DNA from: a virus
Length of the DNA: 16,162 nt
Virus genome (UHGV): UHGV-0124814
Reading direction: 5' to 3' (one strand)
Shown here: piece by piece, positions 1,346-16,112 of the stretch
Layout of the letters: each line of letters opens with the position of its first letter
Position numbering within the stretch: the stretch's first letter is position 1
Translations under genes and position numbers: made by a program
The notes under the pieces: generated by a model
Told to the model about the DNA's origin: nothing
Database searches by the model: none
What the model saw: the letters and a program-made list of their open reading frames with translations, nothing else

Positions 1346-4041
1346 TATGCAAGCCTCACAATGTAGTTAAATGCGATGTTTTTGACGGTGTTTTCCGCGT
1401 TACCCGCAGCGTTAACGGTGATGGTATGTCCATGTGAACCAATCGCAACGGAGTGCGTATGAGCACCAATACCGACAGTATGCGCGTGTGCACCTGCAGA
1501 TGCTGCTGTGCCGGACAGTGAGTGGCTATGATTACCATCTGTACTGGTATTCGCTAACCACCCCGTAGACATACCTACTGAGCCTTGTACACCCCAGGTA
1601 TTTTGACCTGAGCTTGTATAACCATATTGATAAGTATCTTTAAAAACACTGGGGTTAAATCGACGGCCATCTCTATGGCTGTGATTACCAGCTGCATTCG
1701 TGCTGCCACTTAAACTATGGGTATGCGCACCAGTGTTATTCGTGGATTTAGTGCCGTAATCAAACGACGATGTGGTTTTCGTCCCCAAATCCGTACTGGA
1801 TGCGCTGGCGCTGTGGGTGTGCGATTTAATGCCGTCCCGTTCCTGAGACAATACGGCACGACCACTGGCAGGTTTGCCCTTAATCGTCCAGCCACGCATA
1901 TCAGGGATCACGCCTGACGGATAAGCGGCTGCAAGTTTCGGGTAGGCAGATTTGTCAAAAGTCTGCCCCTGCATCAGGGCATAACCAGACGGAACGGTAT
2001 CCGATGGCCACGGGATTGGTGCGCCAGGCGGATAAAACTGCTCTGATGGCGTATAGAGTGAATAAACTGTACCGTCCGTTAACCCTTCCGGCTTATTAGC
2101 AGAATATGCTGGTGACGTATGAATCGTCACGCTGGCATTACTGGTATAATCCCATTGAATATTTACACCAGTCGCATAATTTCCGATTGCAACGTAAATA
2201 TCGTAAGTATCACCAGATGTATTGACCCAGGCAAAATTTGTAAACCCTGTCGATGTGCGCTGCCATAAAGCACCAGTAATCCCCTTCGGATTACCATTAC
2301 CTGCACGCAAAACAAGTTCAGATATACCTGCCTGTTGAGGTGAACCGACGTTAAATCCAGTGCCACCAATCAACGTAATTGAAACAACAGAACTCGCCTG
2401 TGGCATGGTTACCGTTGCTAATTTGAACCAACCAGCACCACCGCTGAATGACATTGTTGTTGAGTTAAGCGTACCAATATCTTTCGGCGTCAGTGTTATA
2501 TCCTCCGAAAGCGCCTTACCATTCACCTTACGGTCAGAAGGTACCCGATCATTCGCATTGTCATTCGCTGCTTTAACTGCCTTCGGTGTCGCGGCAAGCG
2601 TTTCAGACGTACTGTTTGTCGCACTGCTGAGCTGTACTATCCCCTTTTTCGTCGTGCTCGCATCCTCAAGCGCCACGGCGGATGCAATATCCTCTGCCCG
2701 TTTTGCCGCTGTCTCAGCGCGCGTTGCTGCGGATTCTGCCGTACTTTTGCTCTGTGCTGCCGCTGTCGCACTGCCAGCAGCCTCTGTCGCCTTTGTGGAT
2801 GCCGTCGTGGCGCTGCTCTTCGCTGCTGACGCCTGTCTGGTCGCCTCATCTTTTGAAGCAGACGCCGATGATGCCGATGACGCCGCCGAACTGGCGGACG
2901 ATGCCGCTGCCGTTTTTGAGGATTCTGCGCTGGTTTCCGACGCTTTCGCGTTCGTTTCGGATGTCTTCGCTGAGGAAGCAGACCTCGCTGCTGCGCTGGC
3001 CTGTTCAGTGGCTTCGCCAGTCTTCGTTGTGGCTGTTGAAGCGGATGATGCGGCGCTTTCTGCCGATTTTCCGGCGGCGGTGGCACTGACTGAGGCCTGC
3101 CCGGCACTTGTTGATGCGGCACTGGCGGACGACGCAGCCGCTGTTTTTGAATCTGCCGCAGCTGAGGCACTCTGTCCCGCTGCCGTTTCAGAAGACCTGG
3201 CGTTCGTCTCGGACGTTTTGGCCGCCTTCGCAGAATTTGCTGTCGCCGTTGCCGAGGAAGCTGCGCTGCTGGCGCTCGAGGCTGCGCTCGTTTCTGATGA
3301 TTTTGCCGCCTCTTTTGAAGCCGACGCATCCCGGGCTGAGGTGGCAGCTTCTGACGCTTTCGTGGTCGCGGTGGATGCAGAAGTGGCTGCTGATTGTTGT
3401 GACGCTGCGGCATTCGTTTCTGACGTTTTCGCCGCAGCGGCACTGGTGGCCGCCGCGCTTTTTGAGGACTCTGCAGCGGCAGCACTTTTTTCCGCTTCAG
3501 TGGCCTTTGTTGATGCCGTTTCTGCGCTGGAAGACGCTGACTGAGCCGACGACGCGGCCTGTCCGGCTGACGTGCTGGCTGCGCGTGCTGAGCCTGCAGC
3601 ATCAGTCGCATGGGTTGCCGCCTCACGGGCTGATGTGCTGGCATCGCCGGCTGACTTCTTCGCGGCTGCCGTGTTCTGTGCCACTGCGGACGCGTTACGC
3701 TCCACCTCTTCCACCATCACTTCAAAACGGCGCAGTGCCTCCGGTCGGACATCATCCTCCGTCATGGCACCGAGAAAATCATTCAGCGTACCTGGTCTGG
3801 AACCTTCATAGACGGTAATGGTCCCGGCATGTGAAGGCGGAAAACCTTCAACCAGCAGGGTGACGCTGTACTGACCATGCTCAACATCCATGCTGTAACG
3901 TCCGGCTTCATCCGGATTTTCAGAGGCCACCGTGTTCACCACCACCGTGCTGCTGGTTCGTCTGGCCTTCAGCACAATGGTGCAGTTCTGTACTGGTTTT
4001 CCTGTGCCATCTTTAAGCACGCCAGAAATTTTTACTGTCAT
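1345..4041 (-). CDS. stf: Side tail fiber protein Stf
   Basis: 898-aa ORF; N-terminus '[22 protein letters not shown]...' matches lambda Stf as recalled; central Ala/Ser/Thr-rich repeats; C-terminal HxH-rich region ending '...[11 protein letters not shown]'. Confidence 0.9.
2690..3700 (-). repeat. Degenerate tandem Ala/Ser/Thr-rich repeats inside stf (recurring '...AAKTSETNA...', '...SSASSAASS...', '...STATTK...')
   Basis: Repeated peptide blocks read from the translation; the GCN-rich DNA creates long spurious ORFs in other frames on both strands. Confidence 0.6.
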
Positions 4042-4862: not shown

Positions 4863-6026
4863 TCAACGAATACTGATGCCGGAAGCGGCTTTTTTGGTCA
4901 CAATCACCGTACAGTCGGTGATATTGCCTGCCCCCTGATTGCCTTTCTGGAAAATCTTAAACTCCAGAGTGACGCTACCACCACCACTAGGCATATCAAT
5001 AACTGCACTGTAACTACCGGGAATGGCCCCTTTAGTTTCTCTGGATGCGATTAATACGCCGTTTTTGCGAACTTCAAAACCATAACCCGTGTATCGCGTG
5101 CCTCCTGGGTTATTTCCGCTCCCCGGATCGTCATACGCTATACCGTTAAAAATAATGGGCGGAATAATAATCTGGCGGTCAAAGTTATGATCATCGCTGA
5201 TGGTGACTGTAACCGTACCGTTTGGTGTTTCCGTGTTACCCCACGTACCGACTTTTTTCGGGAAGGCTTTTGATACAGCTTTAACGAAATCCCCTCTGAC
5301 CTGGGTCGCCTCCAGCATGCCCTTAATCGTACAGTTCTGGTTAATCTTGACATTGTTGAGCGTTCCTGAGTTCGCATTCACACTGCCACTGATATCCGCA
5401 TTTTTAGCGGTCAGCTTTCCGTCTGATGTCAGGGAAAATACCGGAGGACTGCCACCGCTGGTAATGGTGGGGGCCGTCAGGCGCTTCAGGAACACGTCGT
5501 TCATGAATATCTGGTTGCCCTGCGCCACAAACATCGGCGTTTCATTCCCGTTTGCCGGGTCAATAAACGCGATACGGTTAGCGGCAACCAGAAACTGGCT
5601 CAGCTTGCCTTCCTCCGTGTCCTCCATGCTGAGGCCAATACCCGCGACATAATGTTTGCCGTCTTTGGTCTGCTCAATTTTGACGCCCCACATGGCATTC
5701 CATTTATCGTTAGCGTCCTTCCACTCTTTCGAAAACTCCTCCAGTCTGCTGGCGTTATCTTCCGTCAGCTCAAAGTTTTCCAGCAGTTCCTTGCCGAGAT
5801 GCGTTTTATTGATCAACCCTTTATAAAAATTCAGATAACCTTCCGCATCATCGCTCGCCCGACCGACGGCCTCCACAAATGCCGATTTACCAACGGTGTT
5901 CACGCTGCGGATATAAAAGTAATAATCATAACCTGGCTTAATATTGCTACTGGCGGCTATCCAGTACAGCGCCGTACCAAGATAACGCGCGCTGGTTTCA
6001 ACCTGCCTGATATCGATAAGCGGATT
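4863..6026 (-). pseudogene. J: C-terminal fragment (~387 codons) of tail tip/host-specificity protein J; N-terminal part of the gene deleted
   Basis: Open frame from 6026 down to the stop at 4863 with no ATG at its 5' end (first candidate is GTG at 5903); translation resembles the lambda J C-terminus as recalled. Confidence 0.8.
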
Positions 6027-6352
6027 TTATAGGCACGGGTATCACCTTCATTAAACCACACCAGCAGCGCCTGCTGCCCCTGCTCTCCGGGCATCCACGC
6101 CAGCGTGAAGCTGGTATCTCCGGCGGATTTCTGACCCTGCCCGGTCGCGGTCCAGTCCGCATCTTCATCATCGAGATAACTGTCGTCATAGGACTCAGCG
6201 GTCAGTTCGCCGGGCGTCAGGTCTTTAACTTTAGCCAGACGCGACCAGTCAACGTCTGAAAGCGGGTTCGCATAAGGGTCGCCGCTCCCGTTATAAACCC
6301 ACAGGGTGGTTCCGGCACCTTTCACCGGTATTGCTGGATTTGGTACAGGCAT
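5957..6352 (-). pseudogene. V: Truncated major tail tube protein V (N-terminal ~120 aa, then out-of-frame read-through into J sequence)
   Basis: '[20 protein letters not shown]...TRAYKIR' matches the lambda gpV N-terminus as recalled, then changes to '[20 protein letters not shown]' and stops; lambda V is about twice as long. Confidence 0.8.
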
Positions 6353-6359
6353 ATCGTCC

Positions 6360-6755
6360 TCACATTTCATAGGTAATGACATAAGTCAGATCGGCAGAAC
6401 TCCACAGGCCCGCATCATCGTCGCGCCGGTAGTCATAGCCGCTGGCCACCATACTGGTGATCAAATCTGACAGTGCCGGGACATCGCTCATCACCGGATA
6501 AATCCGGGACTCCATCCACGAATCCAGCTCTGAATCCGGCACCTGAGCAGGCAGGAAAACTTCAATATGCAGCTCCGCCTGCCAGGTATCACTGTCCAGC
6601 TCTTCGCCCGTGTATTCAGCGCCGGTGAGATAAACGGCAATTGCCGGAAAATCCGCCTCATCAAAAACAGCGGGGCGACCATCAAAAAGCGTCGCCCCGG
6701 TGTCATGCTTCTCCAGTGCATCCAGTACGGCTGCACGGAGTTCAGTATGTTTCAT
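6360..6755 (-). CDS. U: Minor tail protein U (tail terminator), apparently intact
   Basis: 131-aa ORF '[36 protein letters not shown]...' matching lambda gpU in sequence and length; start ATG overlaps the upstream stop (ATGA). Confidence 0.9.
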
Positions 6756-8930: not shown

Positions 8931-9398
8931 TCATCGAAGGCATTGCGTCCTGATGTATTCCTGAAGCGTTCTCAGTGCTGTTTGGTCGCGGATAATTCCG
9001 TCCCGGATACCGAGAACGTTTCGTCCAGCAACTGGAGAGAGTTCGACGGTGGCATCATTGCCCATGCCGGAGGCGCTGGAGGTTTCGGCTGAGGATGGCA
9101 CAGGGCATTTTCCTTTGACGAGCACCCTGCCACCATTATCAAGCTTGCGACGAAGAGCATCATTTTCAGCTTTCGCATCAGCTAACTCCTTCGTGTATTT
9201 TGCATCGAGCGCAGCAACATCACGCTGACGCATCTGCATGTCAGTAATTGCCGCGTTCGCCAGCTTCAGTTCTCTGACATTTTTGTCGCGCTGGGCTTTG
9301 TAGGTAATGGCGTTATCACGGTAATGATTCAGCCCCAGACTAAGCACACCACAGGCTACCAGCAGGACAATAATCACCACACACAGAACACGGTTCAT
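8931..9398 (-). CDS. Rz: Rz i-spanin
   Basis: From ATG at 9398 (SD GGTGGTGA): '[17 protein letters not shown]...[60 protein letters not shown]...' closely resembling lambda Rz; the longer track ORF starts at an upstream codon. Confidence 0.85.
8972..9178 (-). CDS. Rz1: Rz1 o-spanin lipoprotein, embedded in Rz in the +1 frame
   Basis: 68-aa ORF '[21 protein letters not shown]...' with lipobox 'VAGC' and proline-rich stretch '[11 protein letters not shown]'; embedded position typical of Rz1. Confidence 0.8.
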
Positions 9399-9497
9399 AT
9401 CACCACCAACGGATTGTCCAGACCAGAACAGCAATGGCCACAATACGAATGGCAAATGCCATTGCCCGAATAAGTTCAGCACTCATCTTTTTAAAGT

Positions 9498-10433
9498 TCA
9501 CGATTTCAGCGCAATGACCAGTTTTGCCAGCCCATACAGCATCGGAGACACAGCAATAGCGTATGTATTTTTCCAGTAATACGTCGTGTCACCACAAATC
9601 CACGGCACATTTACAGCACTGCCACCATGACACTGCGCGTTAAACACAGTGAGGTCAGCACGAAACTGCTTCAGCATGGCTGTAAACAGCGCAGGTTGCT
9701 GTGCGTAGGTGGCGGCGCTCATGTCAAACTCTCCCTGCATCCAGCACACCGCCAGCAACACATTTTTCGGGTTCTTCTGTAATGCCGCTTTGGTGCGTGC
9801 GATCAGGTCCTGATATAACGGTTTACCCACACCCCAGCGTGCCGAATCCTGGCTGGCCCCCGTGTCCGCACTGAATGTCCCCTCCGCGCCCTGGGTGAAT
9901 GCCGAACCACCACGACAGCATGGTACCAGCAGGATCCCCGCGTTATTCGGGATATACGGAAGCAGTTTTTTGGCAATATGTAAGCCCTGGCCGACACAGC
10001 CGTACTGCCCTTTGCTCAGGTCTGCCTTCGGATGATTCAGCGTACTCATATCCTGCACATCATGCAGACAGTGGTCAGCCGGGATGATGTCGTTATACGT
10101 ACAACTCTCTCCACCCGGAGTTACCGTGCTGCGGCGCGCCAGCTGTTTAATGCGCGGATCCGGAGCATCGTAAGAATCCGGTAACGGAAGCCCTTCACCG
10201 TAGGCCATGCCGTTGGACTGTCCGGCAAGCACAACCACGTAGAACCAGTCCGGCTCAGATGAAGGGCCGACCTGTGGATCTCCTTCAATAGCCACCGCCT
10301 GCATCAGTGTGTACGGCGTAATGGCAACCGGTCCGCCATATGGCTGCCAGCCCTCTTTCAGTTTGTGTGTCAGCTTTTCCGCAAGGTCTGACGGCGACGC
10401 CGCCCTGACAACATCATAGTGTTTAAATGCCAT
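9498..10433 (-). CDS. Prophage NanS-p-like sialate 9-O-acetylesterase (N-terminal DUF1737-like segment plus esterase core), probably C-terminally truncated
   Basis: 311-aa ORF with 'VVLAGQSNGMAYGEGLPLPD', 'GILLVPCCRGGSAF', 'CWMQGEFD', 'WICGDTTYYWK' resembling E. coli NanS/YjhS as recalled; strong SD GGGAGGA; ORF ends ~100 nt before Rz. Confidence 0.8.
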   Translation of the reverse strand: MAFKHYDVVRAASPSDLAEKLTHKLKEGWQPYGGPVAITPYTLMQAVAIEGDPQVGPSSEPDWFYVVVLAGQSNGMAYGEGLPLPDSYDAPDPRIKQLARRSTVTPGGESCTYNDIIPADHCLHDVQDMSTLNHPKADLSKGQYGCVGQGLHIAKKLLPYIPNNAGILLVPCCRGGSAFTQGAEGTFSADTGASQDSARWGVGKPLYQDLIARTKAALQKNPKNVLLAVCWMQGEFDMSAATYAQQPALFTAMLKQFRADLTVFNAQCHGGSAVNVPWICGDTTYYWKNTYAIAVSPMLYGLAKLVIALKS

Positions 10434-10655: not shown

Positions 10656-10658
10656 GCC

Positions 10659-10686
10659 CACAAGAAAGCCCCTCCGGAGAGGGGCT
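10659..10686 (-). terminator. Terminator-like hairpin on - strand (AGCCCCTC-UCCG-GAGGGGCU then UUUCUUGU), back-to-back with the + strand terminator
   Basis: 8-bp stem with tetraloop and T-rich tail on the - strand, downstream of the tRNA cluster and upstream of the esterase gene. Confidence 0.35.
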
Positions 10687-10923
10687 GGAGAGTGGCGCTA
10701 TGTGCCATTGCATGGTGCCGGGTGCCTCCCGGTGAATTCAGTACCAGCACCTGAATCCGCGATTATCCCATATACCTACTCGCTGATTGCCCCTCCGCAC
10801 AGGGGGATTCACCATGCCAGTTTCTTTTAACAAACTCCCCGCAAACCAGACAACAGTCAACCGTCTGAATTGTGAGACATTTAAAAAAAAAGGCCCGCAA
10901 AAGCGAGCCAGGGAAAATAAGTG

Positions 10924-11000
10924 TGGCGCGTTGTACTGGATTCGAACCAGTGACCGATTGCTTAGAAGGCAATTGCTCTGTCCGGCTGAGCTAACAACGC
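10924..11000 (-). tRNA. tRNA-Arg (anticodon TCT)
   Basis: Reverse complement folds as cloverleaf: acceptor GCGTTGT/ACAACGC, D-arm GCTC..GAGC, anticodon stem ATTGC/GCAAT with loop CTTCTAA, T-arm ACTGG-TTCGAAT-CCAGT, encoded CCA. Confidence 0.85.
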
Positions 11001-11013
11001 ATGATGCAGATAA

Positions 11014-11090
11014 TGGACCGCCATCGGGGACTTGAACCCCGCGCAGCCAGCTTCGAAGGCTGGCGCTCTTTCCTGATGAGCTAATGGCGG
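11014..11090 (-). tRNA. tRNA-Arg (anticodon TCG)
   Basis: Cloverleaf: acceptor CCGCCAT/ATGGCGG, D-arm GCTC..GAGC, anticodon stem CCAGC/GCTGG with loop CTTCGAA, T-arm CGGGG-TTCAAGT-CCCCG, encoded CCA. Confidence 0.8.
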
Positions 11091-11097
11091 TATGTGA

Positions 11098-11173
11098 TGG
11101 TGGCCCTTGCTGGATTTGAACCAGCGACCTGGCGATTATGAGTCGCTCGCTCTCACCACTGAGCTAAAGGGCC
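11098..11173 (-). tRNA. tRNA-Ile2-like (anticodon CAT; could formally be Met)
   Basis: Cloverleaf: acceptor GGCCCTT/AAGGGCC, anticodon loop CTCATAA, T-arm GCTGG-TTCAAAT-CCAGC, CCA; overall very similar to E. coli tRNA-Ile2 as recalled. Confidence 0.8.
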
Positions 11174-11222
11174 GGAAGCAGAATAATAATGGTGCGTAAT
11201 TAATTCTGCAATCTCATCCGTT

Positions 11223-11678
11223 TCAAACGATTAAATCCTGAACTTCCCTGACTGTCTGCTCAAAACGTCCGGTCTCCAGTTCAACGCCAATCGCACGACG
11301 CCCGAGCGCCAGTGCCGCTTTTACCGTTGAACCTGAGCCCATAAAAAAATCTGCAACCTGGTCTCCCGGACGACTGCTCGCGTTGATTATCTGCTGCAAC
11401 ATTTCTGCCGGTTTTTCGCACGGATGTTTCCCTGGATAGTACTGCACCGGTTTATACGTCCACACATCGGTGTACGGCACCTGCACCGTCACACCGAAAT
11501 ACCTCCGCAAATTTTTATATTCACTCAGCAGTTCCATATACTGCCGGTTCAGCTCACTGTATGTGCTGACCAGTTGGTAATGGGACTTTTCCAGTTCTCC
11601 CCGCTGATGTTTCTCTTCTGCCACCCGGGCAAACAGCGACTGTAATTTCAGATAATCGCTTTCGTTCGGTATCCGGCG
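11223..11678 (-). pseudogene. C-terminal fragment of a phage DNA N6-adenine/N4-cytosine methyltransferase; N-terminal half absent
   Basis: Frame open from 11678 with no ATG (first start-like codon is GTG at 11624); contains 'HPCEKP' and C-terminal SAM motif 'FFMGSGST' but no DPPY-type motif. Confidence 0.65.
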
Positions 11679-11753
11679 TTAATTGTTAACTGGTTAACGT
11701 CACCTGGAGGCACCAGGCACCGCATCACAAAATTCATTGTTGAGGACGCGATA

Positions 11754-11942
11754 ATGGAAACGTTATTACCAAACGTTAATACGTCTGAAGGTTGTTTTGA
11801 AATTGGTGTCACTATCAGTAACCCTGTATTTACTGAAGATGCCATTAACAAGAGAAAACACGAACGGGAGCTATTAAATAAAATATGCATTCTTTCAATG
11901 CTGGCCCGTTTACGTCCGATACAAAAAGGATGCTGGCAATGA
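11754..11942 (+). CDS. Hypothetical small protein, 62 aa
   Basis: ATG preceded by SD (GAGGACGCGATA-ATG); stop overlaps the next ATG (ATGA); no family recognised. Confidence 0.45.
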   Translation: METLLPNVNTSEGCFEIGVTISNPVFTEDAINKRKHERELLNKICILSMLARLRPIQKGCWQ

Positions 11943-12130
11943 ATACAGCATTTGCACTTGTTCTGACAGTTTTTCTTGTTTCCGGAGAGCCAGTTGATAT
12001 TGCAGTCAGTGTTCACAGGACAATGCAGGAGTGTGTGACTGCAGCAACCGAACAGAAAATTCCCGGTAACTGTTACCCGGTCGATAAAGTTATTCACCAG
12101 GATAATAACGAAATCCCGGCAGGTCTTTAA
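11939..12130 (+). CDS. Hypothetical small protein, 63 aa, with N-terminal hydrophobic segment (signal peptide or membrane anchor) and two Cys
   Basis: ATG at 11939 with AAAGGA 8 nt upstream; 'MNTAFALVLTVFLVSGEPVDIAVSV...'; the track ORF starts 18 codons earlier at a less likely ATG. Confidence 0.45.
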   Translation: MNTAFALVLTVFLVSGEPVDIAVSVHRTMQECVTAATEQKIPGNCYPVDKVIHQDNNEIPAGL

Positions 12131-12222
12131 AACAGTTCCGTAATAAACATCCGATTTCATTCTTATATGCCAGCAATGGCAGGGATTTGTTCACCCTTAA
12201 ATCTGTAATGAGGTAAAACAAA

Positions 12223-14694
12223 ATGAGTAAAGTCTTTATTTGCGCCGCCATTCCGGACGAACAGGCAATAAAGGAAGAAGGTGCAGTCGCTGTAGCCACT
12301 GCCATTGAAGCTGGCGACGAACGCCGTGCTCGAGCAAAATTTCACTGGCAATTCCTGGAACATTATCCGGCTGCTCAGGACTGCGCTTATAAATTTCTTG
12401 TTTGCGAGGATAAACCCGGTATACCCCGCCCTGCCCTCGATTCCTGGGATGCTGAATATATGCAGGAAAACCGCTGGGATGAGGAGTCTGCTTCCTTTGT
12501 CCCGGTTGAGACTGAATCCGATCCGATGAACGTCACTTTTGACAAGCTGGCCCCTGAAGTACAGAACGCTGTCATGGTTAAGTTCGACACATGTGAAAAC
12601 ATCACCGTTGATATGGTTATTAGCGCACAGGAATTGTTGCAGGAAGACATGGCAACATTCGACGGACATATCGTTGAAGCGTTGATGAAAATGCCAGATG
12701 TTAACGCCATGTATCCGGAGCTTAAGCTGCATGCCATCGGGTGGGTTAAGCATAAATGTAAGCCTGGTGCCAAATGGCCCGAAATTCAGGCAGAGATGCG
12801 CATCTGGAAAAAACGTCGCGAAGGTGAACGCAAGGAAACCGGAAAATACACGTCTGTTGTTGATCTCGCCCGCGCCAGAACCAATCAACAGCACACTGAA
12901 AATTCAACAGGAAAAATCAACCCGGTCATTGCTGCCATTCATCGCGAATACAAGCAGACATGGAAAACACTGGATGACGAACTGGCCTACGCTCTCTGGC
13001 CTGGTGATGTGGATGCCGGAAACATTGACGGCAGCATCCATCGCTGGGCAAAAAATGAAGTTATCGACAACGACCGCGAAGACTGGAAGCGTATCTCGGC
13101 ATCAATGCGCAAACAGCCTGATGCCCTTCGCTACGACCGCCAGACTATTTTTGGCCTTGTCCGTGAACGTCCGATCGACATTCACAAAGACCCTGTGGCA
13201 CTGAACAAATACATTACTGAATACCTGACTACAAAGGGCGTGTTTGAAGATGAAGGAACAAATCAGAGCGCAACTGATACTCTCTCGTCGCCAGTACCAG
13301 AAACTGATGCAGTGGAAACGGCAATTCCGGACAACGAAAAAACCGAATGCAAAGTGGAAGTCGAACCATCTGTAGAACGTGAGGGGCCGTTCTACTTCCT
13401 CTTCACCGACAAGGATGGCGAAAAATACGGTCGCGCAAACAAACTTTCTGGTCTGGATAAGGCGCTGTCTGCTGGGGCTACTGAAATCACGAAAGAAGAA
13501 TATTTCGCCCGCAAAAACGGTACATACTCAGGTTCACAACAAAATACTGGTGCATCTGACACGACCGCACAACCAGGGTCAGTAAAAGTTACCGCTGACG
13601 AAGTAAACAAAATTATGCAGGCAGCCAATATCAGCCAGCCTGACGCCGATGAACTGCTTGCAGTATCACGTGGTGAATTTGTTGAAGGGATTAGCGACCC
13701 GAATGATCCGAAATGGGTAAAGGGGATTGAAACCCGCGATTCTGTAAACCAGAACCAGCAAGAATCGGAACAGAACGACCAGAAAGCGGAACAAAACAGC
13801 CCAAATGCGTTACAAAACGAGCCAGAAACGAAACAGCCTGAATCAGTGGCGCAACAGGAAGTGGAAAAAGTCTGCACCGCCTGCGGTCAGACCGGCGGCG
13901 GCAACTGCCCTGATTGTGGCGCGGTAATGGGCGACGCAACATACCAGGAAACATTCGATGAAGAGTATCAGCCTGAAGTTCAGGAAGATGATCCGGAGGA
14001 AATGGAAGGCGCTGAACATCCACACAAGGAGAACACTGGCGGCAATAAGCATCACGATAGCGATAATGAAACTGGCGAGACGGCAGATCACTCAATTAAG
14101 GTGAACGGTCATCAAGAAATCACATCCACCAGCAGGACGTGTGACCATCTAATGATCGACCTTGAAACCATGGGAAAAAATCCTGATGCCCCGATCATCT
14201 CAATAGGTGCAATATTTTTCGATCCGCAAACCGGAGATATGGGACCGGAATTTAGTAAGACTATCGATCTGGAAACTGCTGGCGGAGTCATTGATCGGGA
14301 CACCATTAAATGGTGGCTTAAGCAATCACGCGAAGCGCAATCTGCCATTATGACCGATGAAATCCCGTTAGATGATGCACTGTTACAATTGCGGGAATTT
14401 ATCGACGAAAACTCCGGTGAATTTTTTGTTCAGGTTTGGGGAAATGGAGCCAACTTCGACAACACGATTTTGCGCCGTTCATACGAACGGCAGGGGATCC
14501 CCTGCCCGTGGCGTTACTACAACGATCGCGATGTACGCACAATCGTTGAGCTGGGGAAAGCCATAGACTTCGATGCCAGAACGGCTATTCCATTCGAAGG
14601 TGAGCGCCATAATGCACTTGATGACGCCCGTTACCAGGCAAAATACGTTTCAGCTATCTGGCAAAAACTGATCCCGAGTCAGGCTGATTTTTAA
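12223..14694 (+). CDS. Large prophage early-region protein with C-terminal DEDDh (DnaQ-like) 3'-5' exonuclease domain, central Cys4 zinc-ribbon-like motif and acidic linker
   Basis: 823-aa ORF with SD GAGGT; C-terminal motifs 'MIDLETMG', 'WGNGANFDNT', 'HNALDDARY'; 'CTACGQTGGGNCPDCG'; position immediately upstream of xis/int. Confidence 0.8.
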   Translation: MSKVFICAAIPDEQAIKEEGAVAVATAIEAGDERRARAKFHWQFLEHYPAAQDCAYKFLVCEDKPGIPRPALDSWDAEYMQENRWDEESASFVPVETESDPMNVTFDKLAPEVQNAVMVKFDTCENITVDMVISAQELLQEDMATFDGHIVEALMKMPDVNAMYPELKLHAIGWVKHKCKPGAKWPEIQAEMRIWKKRREGERKETGKYTSVVDLARARTNQQHTENSTGKINPVIAAIHREYKQTWKTLDDELAYALWPGDVDAGNIDGSIHRWAKNEVIDNDREDWKRISASMRKQPDALRYDRQTIFGLVRERPIDIHKDPVALNKYITEYLTTKGVFEDEGTNQSATDTLSSPVPETDAVETAIPDNEKTECKVEVEPSVEREGPFYFLFTDKDGEKYGRANKLSGLDKALSAGATEITKEEYFARKNGTYSGSQQNTGASDTTAQPGSVKVTADEVNKIMQAANISQPDADELLAVSRGEFVEGISDPNDPKWVKGIETRDSVNQNQQESEQNDQKAEQNSPNALQNEPETKQPESVAQQEVEKVCTACGQTGGGNCPDCGAVMGDATYQETFDEEYQPEVQEDDPEEMEGAEHPHKENTGGNKHHDSDNETGETADHSIKVNGHQEITSTSRTCDHLMIDLETMGKNPDAPIISIGAIFFDPQTGDMGPEFSKTIDLETAGGVIDRDTIKWWLKQSREAQSAIMTDEIPLDDALLQLREFIDENSGEFFVQVWGNGANFDNTILRRSYERQGIPCPWRYYNDRDVRTIVELGKAIDFDARTAIPFEGERHNALDDARYQAKYVSAIWQKLIPSQADF

Positions 14695-14755
14695 TGTTCA
14701 ACCGTCGCCAGTTGTCGTTGATATTCTGCAACTGGCGCGTTCCGGAGTGATAGCC

Positions 14756-15025
14756 ATGAGCGAACAGTACCTGATAACGCTCGACGAGTGGAAACCAAAA
14801 CGGTTCAGTCTCCCAATAACAAACACTACCCTGGTGAAATACGGAAAACTAGGATACATCGTTCCAAGACCACAAAAAATTCGTGGGCGTTGGCTGATAG
14901 ATCGCCGAGCAGTATTTGTTGGGCCTGGTGAAACGGGAATTGCGCCGGAAATTCATACTGGCGATGATGATGCACTGAAGGAGATTTTAACTCATGTCAC
15001 CGAGGCCACGAAAAAACAGCACTGA
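14756..15025 (+). CDS. xis: Excisionase (Xis-like)
   Basis: 89-aa ORF from ATG at 14756 (SD GGAG 8 nt upstream), immediately upstream of and overlapping int by 32 nt. Confidence 0.65.
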   Translation: MSEQYLITLDEWKPKRFSLPITNTTLVKYGKLGYIVPRPQKIRGRWLIDRRAVFVGPGETGIAPEIHTGDDDALKEILTHVTEATKKQH

Positions 15026-16112
15026 CGTAGCCGGTCTTTACGAAAAGTTTGATCGCAGAACTGGCAGAGTTTACTACCAGTATAAAAATCCTGTGACTGG
15101 AAAATTTCACGGACTCGGAACAGACAAAGGTAAGGCAGAAAAAATCGCTTCCACAGCCAATCAGCGAATAGCTGCAGCAGAAGCTGAATATTTCATGCGC
15201 AAAATTGATGAAAGTCCGTCAGCAACAAAACGTCGGGGTATCAGATTAAAGGCATGGGTTGATCGATATCTGAAAATACAGGACACGCGACTGAAAAATG
15301 GAGATATTGCAGCTACAACTCACAAAGAAAAAACTCGAATGGCTGCATACCTGGTTTCCCGTCTGGGAAACCCCCCATTGAAAGAACTGGAAGTAAGAGA
15401 CTTTGCATTAATACTGGATGAGTGGCTGGATAAAGACATGGTCAGCACAGCGAGAGTAAATCGTGGATTATGGGTTGATATTTATAAAGAAGCACAGCAT
15501 GCAGGGGAAGTTCCTCCTGGATGGAATCCTCCGGAGGCTACCCGTAAACCGATCCCTAAAGTAACCAGAGCCAGGCTCACCATGGAAGACTGGCAAAAAA
15601 TTTACAATGCAACGCCTGAAAAACACTTTATCCGTAACGCAATGCTTCTTGCGATTGTTACTGGTCAGCGCCGTGATGACATTTGCCACATGCGTTTTTC
15701 AGATGTGTGGAACGAACACTTGCATATCACCCAGGGAAAAACCGGAATGCGTCTGGCGTTACCGCTTACACTACGCTGTGATGCCATTGGGATAACGTTA
15801 AAAGAAGTTATTGATGGGTGCCGAGACAGAATATTAAGTCCATATCTAATCCATAGTCGGCACCAGAAACAACCGAAGCCGATGAGTAAAGACAACCTGA
15901 GCGACTACTTTGCCAAAGCACGGGATCTGGCTGGGATAATTCCACCAGCAGGAAAAACTCCGCCAACATTTCATGAACAACGCTCTCTATCAGAACGGCT
16001 GTACCGTGCACAGGGTATCGATACAAAAACATTACTAGGACATAAAGTCCAGGCAACCACCGATCGCTATAACGATACTCGAGGTCAGGAATGGGTTAAG
16101 CTGGTTATTTGA
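14994..16112 (+). CDS. int: Tyrosine site-specific integrase, lambda Int family
   Basis: 372-aa ORF; C-terminal catalytic region '...TGQRRDDICHMRFSDV...', 'HEQRSLSERLY', 'LLGHKVQATTDRYNDTRGQEW' parallels lambda Int RHR-Y motifs; distinct from lambda Int itself. Confidence 0.9.
   Translation: MSPRPRKNSTDVAGLYEKFDRRTGRVYYQYKNPVTGKFHGLGTDKGKAEKIASTANQRIAAAEAEYFMRKIDESPSATKRRGIRLKAWVDRYLKIQDTRLKNGDIAATTHKEKTRMAAYLVSRLGNPPLKELEVRDFALILDEWLDKDMVSTARVNRGLWVDIYKEAQHAGEVPPGWNPPEATRKPIPKVTRARLTMEDWQKIYNATPEKHFIRNAMLLAIVTGQRRDDICHMRFSDVWNEHLHITQGKTGMRLALPLTLRCDAIGITLKEVIDGCRDRILSPYLIHSRHQKQPKPMSKDNLSDYFAKARDLAGIIPPAGKTPPTFHEQRSLSERLYRAQGIDTKTLLGHKVQATTDRYNDTRGQEWVKLVI

Follow-up and report, generated by a model that had tools for sequence, protein, structure and literature searches.

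The closest described relative of the locus analysed here is the dicBF operon of the Qin prophage in Escherichia coli K-12, in which ydfABC, dicF, dicB and ydfD (with ydfE beyond) are transcribed from a sole promoter, dicBp, located upstream of ydfA and repressed by DicA; a 1608-nt ydfABC-dicFB-ydfD transcript species ends after ydfD (PMC10448788). One older study, as cited in that paper, had proposed a promoter upstream of dicB (PMC10448788). DicB of K-12 is a cytoplasmic protein that binds MinC and brings it to the septum via ZipA, with the result that the FtsZ ring is dismantled and filamentation follows; its interaction with MinC also lets it block ManYZ, the inner-membrane DNA-entry route of lambda-type phages, giving ~100-fold resistance (PMC6832061). 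Expression of the second protein, YdfD, leads to cell lysis, which is prevented by co-expressed DicB or SulA; YdfD binds IspG, and cells are rescued by ispG overexpression or by the IspG product (PMC8835842). Because either division inhibitor prevents it, YdfD lysis depends on division. For the K-12 orthologue, the published mechanism is that binding of IspG deprives the cell of isoprenoid carrier lipid, so that dividing cells lyse, and that DicB stops lysis because lysis requires division.

A similar arrangement is found in the Rac prophage. Like dicB-ydfD, the kilR-ydaE pair lies in the leftward early operon and consists of a small FtsZ-directed inhibitor followed by a second small overlapping ORF, and it likewise has an upstream DicF-like sRNA, KilS, and a nearly identical leader resembling the STnc100 RNA family. 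KilR acts on FtsZ without MinC, and YdaE is a zinc-binding protein, not a member of DUF1482.

Here we describe a stretch of viral DNA of 16,162 nt (UHGV virus genome UHGV-0124814, referred to in its entirety as the window), in which the initial annotation had pointed to a translationally coupled pair of small ORFs beside a deletion scar. Sequence comparison indicates that the pair is very probably dicB and ydfD, the distal protein genes of a Qin-type dicBF operon, intact but orphaned by a deletion of ~7 kb and presumably silent. The two genes are themselves already known and characterised.

The first ORF, dicB (11754-11942, + strand), encodes a cell-division inhibition protein of 62 aa beginning METLLPNVNTSEGCFEIG. 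It matches Pfam DicB (PF05358) from residue 1 to 62 on profile positions 1-62 (1.7e-37, 127.4 bits, cut-off 27), as well as NCBIfam NF049927 (DicB; 3e-39, 132.7 bits, cut-off 100), and these full-length matches above the curated cut-offs, at a length of ~62 aa, place it in the DicB family. The protein is identical to the dicB product of EDL933 (WP_000449192.1) and 89% identical to the Qin DicB of K-12 (b1575), from which it differs by seven substitutions, mostly C-terminal; the last nine residues read RPIQKGCWQ in the window and RLMPKGCAQ in K-12. The good Shine-Dalgarno sequence ascribed to this ORF is GAGGA at 11742-11746 (+), read from the sequence, 7 nt before the ATG.

The second ORF, ydfD (11939-12130, +), encodes a DUF1482 lysis protein of 63 aa beginning MNTAFALVLTVFLVSGEPVD. 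The match to Pfam DUF1482 (PF07358; 3.7e-25, 88 bits, cut-off 25), the length of ~63 aa, the hydrophobic N-terminus and the two conserved cysteines together assign it to the YdfD/DUF1482 family. The hydrophobic start and the two cysteines had already been remarked on: the N-terminal segment MNTAFALVLTVFLVSG reaches a Kyte-Doolittle maximum of 2.95 over residues 4-14, and the C-terminal part, which is acidic, bears Cys32 and Cys45, both of which are retained in the 48%-identical homologue of phage PPompW. The protein is identical to the DUF1482 product of EDL933 (WP_001090200.1) and 94% identical to YdfD of K-12 (b1576, annotated 'lysis protein'). The dicB stop and the ydfD start overlap as ATGA (11939-11942), and ydfD has its own Shine-Dalgarno sequence, AAGGA, at 11926-11930 (+), 8 nt before its ATG and within the 3' end of dicB; the overlap and this site would keep both proteins co-translated from one mRNA. 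Two ORFs of 62 and 63 aa with an ATGA overlap are thus present as first described, with profile matches far beyond chance. Neither protein has a relative among solved structures in the PDB, and PHROGs places both only in families of 'unknown function' (1251 and 1092). An antisense ORF of 170 aa (11648-12160, -) spans dicB and ydfD; it has no Pfam family match and is probably spurious.

The arrangement had been likened to toxin-antitoxin, Kil-type and superinfection-exclusion modules. The latter two comparisons hold in kind, DicB being a division inhibitor that also blocks phage entry through ManYZ, and by analogy DicB can be regarded as the Qin-type counterpart of the Kil protein, that is, as the small division inhibitor of the leftward early operon. 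DicB and Kil/KilR are functional analogues only, not homologues: KilR has no Pfam match and DicB matches only PF05358, so that there is no sequence relation between them, and no family is shared with either lambda Kil or Rac KilR. The comparison to toxin-antitoxin modules fared less well, although the cancelling of YdfD lysis by co-expressed DicB does lend the pair a toxin/antidote character. A canonical type II system, with YdfD as the toxin and DicB as a directly binding, autoregulating antitoxin, would fit the overlap of the two small genes and the finding that co-expressed DicB abolishes YdfD lysis (PMC8835842), but SulA rescues as well as DicB does (PMC8835842), and since it rescues equally, rescue works via division arrest and not by neutralisation. 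Moreover, DicB has a toxicity of its own, repression of the operon is exerted by DicA and not by the pair (PMC10448788), and a genuine relBE is present elsewhere in the same operon of relatives (EDL933 and E. coli Z1323PEC0011). Pfam yields only DicB and DUF1482, and the PADLOC defence and toxin-antitoxin models give no match for either protein; with no similarity to a toxin or antitoxin family, and with rescue being indirect, we regard a type II system as extremely improbable.

The pair is widespread. Of 5426 complete E. coli genomes searched by megablast with 11600-12230, 4574 contain dicB-ydfD (median, two copies each), and the RefSeq labels in those genomes read 'dicB' and 'ydfD: DUF1482 family protein', followed by the exonuclease. 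It is also carried by isolated lambdoid phages (mEp460, Tritos, HannyBb and the PPompW group). In PPompW, nucleotide identity to the window falls to 71% for dicB and 59% for ydfD, and the pair nevertheless retains its ORF lengths, a 4-nt overlap (GTGA) and the YdfD cysteines, with dN/dS at 0.45-0.53. By these sequence measures the DicB/YdfD family is under purifying selection, and the poor conservation in related prophages that would have marked the ORFs as a non-coding remnant is not what is seen.

The surroundings of the pair are those of a heavily eroded prophage. Downstream, the remainder of the leftward early operon comprises an exonuclease gene (12223-14694, +; 823 aa, with a Pfam Rv2179c-like 3'-5' exonuclease domain), an excisionase gene (14747-15025, +; Pfam Exc) and an integrase gene (14994-16112, +; Pfam Arm-DNA-bind_1 and Phage_integrase), in the same order as in EDL933 and Z1323PEC0011. 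Upstream of the deletion junction the late region lies on the opposite strand, with a methylase fragment, three tRNAs, an STnc100 sRNA, a nanS-type esterase and Rz. The three phage tRNA genes (10927-11173, -) are Ile, Arg and Arg in a relative, the esterase gene occupies 9498-10433 (-), and the Rz-like gene (8931-9482) directly adjoins nanS, with no obvious holin or endolysin. Further upstream are a tail-tube gene (5957-6382) and a C-terminal fragment of the tail-tip protein J (4863-5903). A match to the Rfam IS009 RNA family (804-1002, -, 224 bits) lies in or overlaps the region of a tail-fibre-assembly gene (761-1345). Among the 5426 complete E. coli genomes searched by megablast, none matches more than 59% of the window at a single location.

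Compared with the Qin dicBF locus of K-12, the window has both genes with their lengths of 62 and 63 aa, the ATGA overlap, the 88-nt leader and the exonuclease-xis-int order, but lacks dicA/dicC, dicBp, ydfABC and DicF. The downstream exonuclease is full length in the window (823 aa), whereas its K-12 counterpart, ydfE, is an IS2-disrupted pseudogene. The loci of EDL933 and Z1323PEC0011, which encode proteins identical to those of the window, both keep the immunity region, ydfC and DicF; Z1323PEC0011 carries the same prophage type, integrated at potB/potC. What remains in the window is a 5'-truncated operon and not a complete Qin-type one with a DicA-repressed dicBp, ydfABC and DicF upstream, and homology to dicBF loci begins only 88 nt before dicB.

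The early-region deletion scar suspected from the sequence was located by aligning the window with both flanks of the intact relative. On the left is a 5'-truncated gene for a site-specific DNA methyltransferase (11223-11671, -; the ORF covers 11223-11624 and homology continues to 11671), which is 100% identical, up to 11671, to the 3' part of a 1050-bp methylase gene of E. coli Z1323PEC0011 and matches only positions 113-219 of the 221 of the Pfam N6_N4_Mtase profile, the C-terminal half of the domain. Homology to the right flank starts at 11666-11669: positions 11669-12230 show no difference from EDL933, and G11668 is the sole mismatch to it within 11666-12230. The junction (11666-11671) holds a perfect 3-bp microhomology, GTA, at 11669-11671, within a 5/6 match of TCGGTA to TCTGTA, and across it the middle of the late-region methylase gene abuts a position 88 nt before dicB. 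DicF, which lies 87 nt to the left of the breakpoint in EDL933, is absent from the window in an Rfam scan. In Z1323PEC0011 the two flanks are ~7.1 kb apart, and the interval, occupied by immunity and replication genes, comprises the missing methylase sequence together with Q, rusA, ydaT, two dicC/dicA-type HTH regulators, relBE, ydfA-type genes (ydfA-C) and the dicF region. An illegitimate deletion of ~7 kb at the GTA microhomology has removed dicA/dicC, dicBp, ydfABC and DicF.

Megablast searches of the 5426 complete E. coli genomes, with 11100-12230 and with the entire window as query, yielded no junction-spanning match, and no GTDB representative genome contained the junction in a scan for an exact 41-mer. 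With no other genome in the two sets carrying it, the junction could be an assembly chimera; we consider such an artefact less likely than a deletion private to the source strain.

The loss of the upstream region bears directly on expression. Since the deleted stretch took dicBp together with its repressor, the pair is left promoterless. In a consensus scan of the 500 nt upstream of dicB, only one site was found on the + strand facing the gene, and its score of 9/12 is at chance level. We infer that the pair is probably silent in the window; low expression could arise from the GATAAT hexamer at 11651-11656 or from antisense transcription across the methylase remnant. The joint loss of dicBp and dicA would also explain how a dicB locus without dicA is tolerated. 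Beyond ydfD, the consensus scan gives a weak candidate terminator, a terminator-like hairpin (12168-12181) with a T-rich tail (12168-12191 in all, +), which fits the end of the K-12 1608-nt transcript after ydfD (PMC10448788).

With promoter, repressor and DicF deleted, and with a prophage so eroded that J and the methylase are truncated and many late genes are missing, the two ORFs might be decaying, non-functional remnants that remain open only through recency and give no active proteins in this lineage. We judge this unlikely: both frames are intact and protein-identical to copies in intact operons, over 565 nt EDL933 differs only at the junction, and the family is under purifying selection. 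Together these observations imply that coding capacity is fully preserved and that only expression is in doubt.

Upstream of dicB, a short repeat-rich element had been noted, consisting of GTTAAC-TG-GTTAAC (11685-11698) followed by CACCTGG-AGG-CACCAGG (11701-11717). Both repeats are found, and the promoter-like role implied for them gives way to a different interpretation, in which they are two stems of a conserved RNA structure. On comparative sequence evidence, the element belongs to an RNA domain of four helices, related to the STnc100 core, and makes up the 3' half of that domain. The first repeat lies in a hairpin, HP1 (11675-11701, +; GGCGUUAAUUG, loop UUAAC, UGGUUAACGUC), which is supported by the Rfam alignment, minimum-free-energy folds and covariation. 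After a single A (+), unpaired in the Rfam STnc100 alignment, a second hairpin, HP2 (11703-11717, +; CCUGG, loop AGGCA, CCAGG), is formed by the second repeat and is followed by CACC. The 3' strand of a closing stem, P1, is then present as CACCGCAUC (11718-11726, +), its 5' partner GAUGCGGUG having been lost in the deletion along with hairpin A.

The alignment of the intact K-12 spacer shows P1 (GAUGYGGUG ... CACYGCAUC) and, after an invariant GGUGAAU, hairpin A. The full domain is ~130 nt in length, with four helices (P1, hairpin A, HP1 and HP2) and the invariant motifs GGUGAAU and CACCNGGAGGCACCNGGCACC; intact prophages have it in the interval from DicF to dicB. Because the deletion removed the P1 5' strand and hairpin A, only the 3' half survives in the window, and the full fold cannot form.

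The relation to STnc100 (RF02076) is one of a common core and not of family membership under the Rfam threshold. At a relaxed threshold, the window matches the Rfam model at 11598-11717 on model positions 40-140 with 24.7 bits, and the intact K-12 spacer matches model positions 21-154 with 34.1 bits; both fall below the gathering threshold of 47 bits, so the dicB leader does not reach the score, over the whole model, of an STnc100 member. A covariance model of the HP1-HP2 core built only from STnc100-type copies (model R1), however, matches the window at 11672-11725 (41.4 bits, E 2.5e-9) and also finds the K-12, kilR and tciA leaders. The STnc100/PasD sRNAs have the four-helix core in common with the dicB leader; the leader versions lack the seed-plus-terminator 3' part of STnc100 and run instead into the ribosome-binding site of dicB, kilR or tciA. 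The window also contains a genuine, full-length STnc100 sRNA (10656-10846, -; Rfam, 139 bits), ~1 kb from the leader, which has the same layout with entirely different HP1 bases. This sRNA is located directly downstream of the three tRNA genes and upstream of the nanS-type esterase. The interval between the tRNA genes and nanS is the place of the stx genes in Stx phages. Phage 75/02 Stx has an STnc100 sRNA in the space separating stxB from nanS, and AgvB is antisense to the 3' end of this sRNA. As an identity for the module we also considered StxS, a short RNA made from the late promoter pR', and rejected it, since the 75/02 Stx module is found at the stxB-nanS position and not at pR'.

The ~65 nt upstream of dicB recur in other phages at 92-100% identity (blastn against phage genomes), 20-40 nt before different genes: kilR in Rac-SA53 and the Stx phages 75/02 and POCJ13, and tciA/terB in the P1-like phages D6 and P7. 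A Rha/Ash gene also follows a copy of the domain. Besides 11672-11726 of the window, the domain was placed at 2947-3087 of the K-12 Qin locus (L003), at 1723-1909 (minus) of the K-12 Rac locus (L131) and in loci L004-L007. The order in K-12 Rac is the DicF-like KilS, then the STnc100-like domain, then kilR-ydaE. KilS, an annotated sRNA of the kilR 5' UTR (1906-2003 of the same Rac locus), scores 39 bits against Rfam DicF (threshold 48); from its sequence and equivalent position it looks like a diverged DicF paralogue. A 21-nt core of the domain, CACCNGGAGGCACNNGGCACC, for which 0 chance matches are expected in the window, occurs in at least 120 IMG/VR viral contigs.

Several of these contigs (L018, L027, L084, L104, L028, L051 and L074) carry the module two or three times over a span of 0.3-4 kb. 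Many copies have a Rho-independent terminator 25-35 nt beyond them, making an sRNA-like unit, and some of the units of module plus terminator lie just upstream of holin genes (L045, L099). A further match is found in the Aeromonas phage AP1 (MT713136.1, a 254-kb jumbo phage), where 98 nt at 250055-250152, with no annotated feature, are 96.9% identical to the dicB leader; for sequence of an E. coli prophage this is an odd host range, and the match could reflect horizontal transfer or contamination.

Sequence variation among the copies indicates that all four helices covary. Since MAFFT failed to hold the HP1 register across copies with differing loop lengths, HP1 was assessed by counting anchored stems and in a length-homogeneous subset, A5. 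Among the matches listed, 49 of 64 distinct copies can form 6 or more contiguous stem pairs from a fixed 3' anchor position, compared with ~6% of shuffles, and every HP1 stem position shows 5-6 pair types across the same 64 copies. In subset A5, again among the matches listed, 96.6% of cells pair as against 27-53% for slid partners, a percentage inflated by the pre-selection of A5 for at least 7 anchored pairs; the anchored-stem counts with their shuffles are the unselected figures. Double changes are seen at 7 of the 8 HP1 pairs in A5 (among the matches listed). P1 covaries over 105 copies among the matches listed, for example as UGCAUGGUG/CACCAUGCA, GUUGUGGUG/CACCACAAC and ACUACGGUG/CACCGUAGU, and at least 8 of its 9 positions pair in 67 of those 105 listed copies (9% of shuffles). 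For HP2, a compensatory change from U-A to G-C is present in P7 and in STnc100-type copies. An independent RNAalifold consensus contains P1, hairpin A and HP2, and each of the three shows compensatory changes.

These data bear on whether the pair is driven by the repeats, acting as a promoter or operator at the DNA level or as a processive antiterminator RNA like put of HK022. The presence of direct and palindromic repeats so close in front of a toxic gene would suit the former, and two adjacent stem-loops one nucleotide apart do resemble put (PMC9378689). At the repeats, however, there is no sigma-70-like hexamer pair, and the hairpin arms covary in dozens of copies with pairing kept, which argues for RNA structure rather than a protein-binding DNA repeat. 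As for put, the K-12 transcript ends after ydfD, unlike the outcome of processive antitermination (PMC10448788). Either role is very unlikely in our estimation. HK022 put itself was tried as an identity for the domain and rejected: neither the 21-nt core, with up to 3 mismatches allowed, nor model R1, at E<=1, finds a match in HK022.

The structured leader is conserved to a degree that the genes behind it are not, the domain being nearly invariant while the unrelated host-directed or toxic genes that follow it (dicB, kilR, tciA/terB, Rha/Ash) diverge. In PPompW (Stx2a phage Stx2_14040; L129 2501-2962), the 88-nt leader is identical to that of the window at 87 of 88 positions, compared with 59-71% for the genes behind it. 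Mosaicism accounts for part of the contrast in PPompW: over the first 15 DicB codons the encoded residues do not differ from those of the window, which places a mosaic boundary inside dicB.

One tentative reading of this pattern, which we put forward as possible rather than probable, is that the domain may be a portable cis-acting RNA device gating whatever lies 3' to it. Such a device could signal processing or punctuation in the manner of a tRNA, cap the transcript for stability, or sense a ligand or protein. If that reading holds, the STnc100/PasD sRNAs would be versions of this device in which a seed and a terminator take the place of the ORF. We found no description of this leader domain in the papers on dicBF, kilR and STnc100/PasD that we consulted.

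The dicB-ydfD copy in the window provides an example of a toxic prophage module that has survived erosion, its promoter having been lost along with its repressor. The part worth following is the STnc100-like leader common to dicB, kilR and tciA, of which the window holds a truncated copy. If the domain does control these genes, it would constitute an extra layer of restraint on the toxins of cryptic prophages and would suggest a function for an orphan sRNA family.
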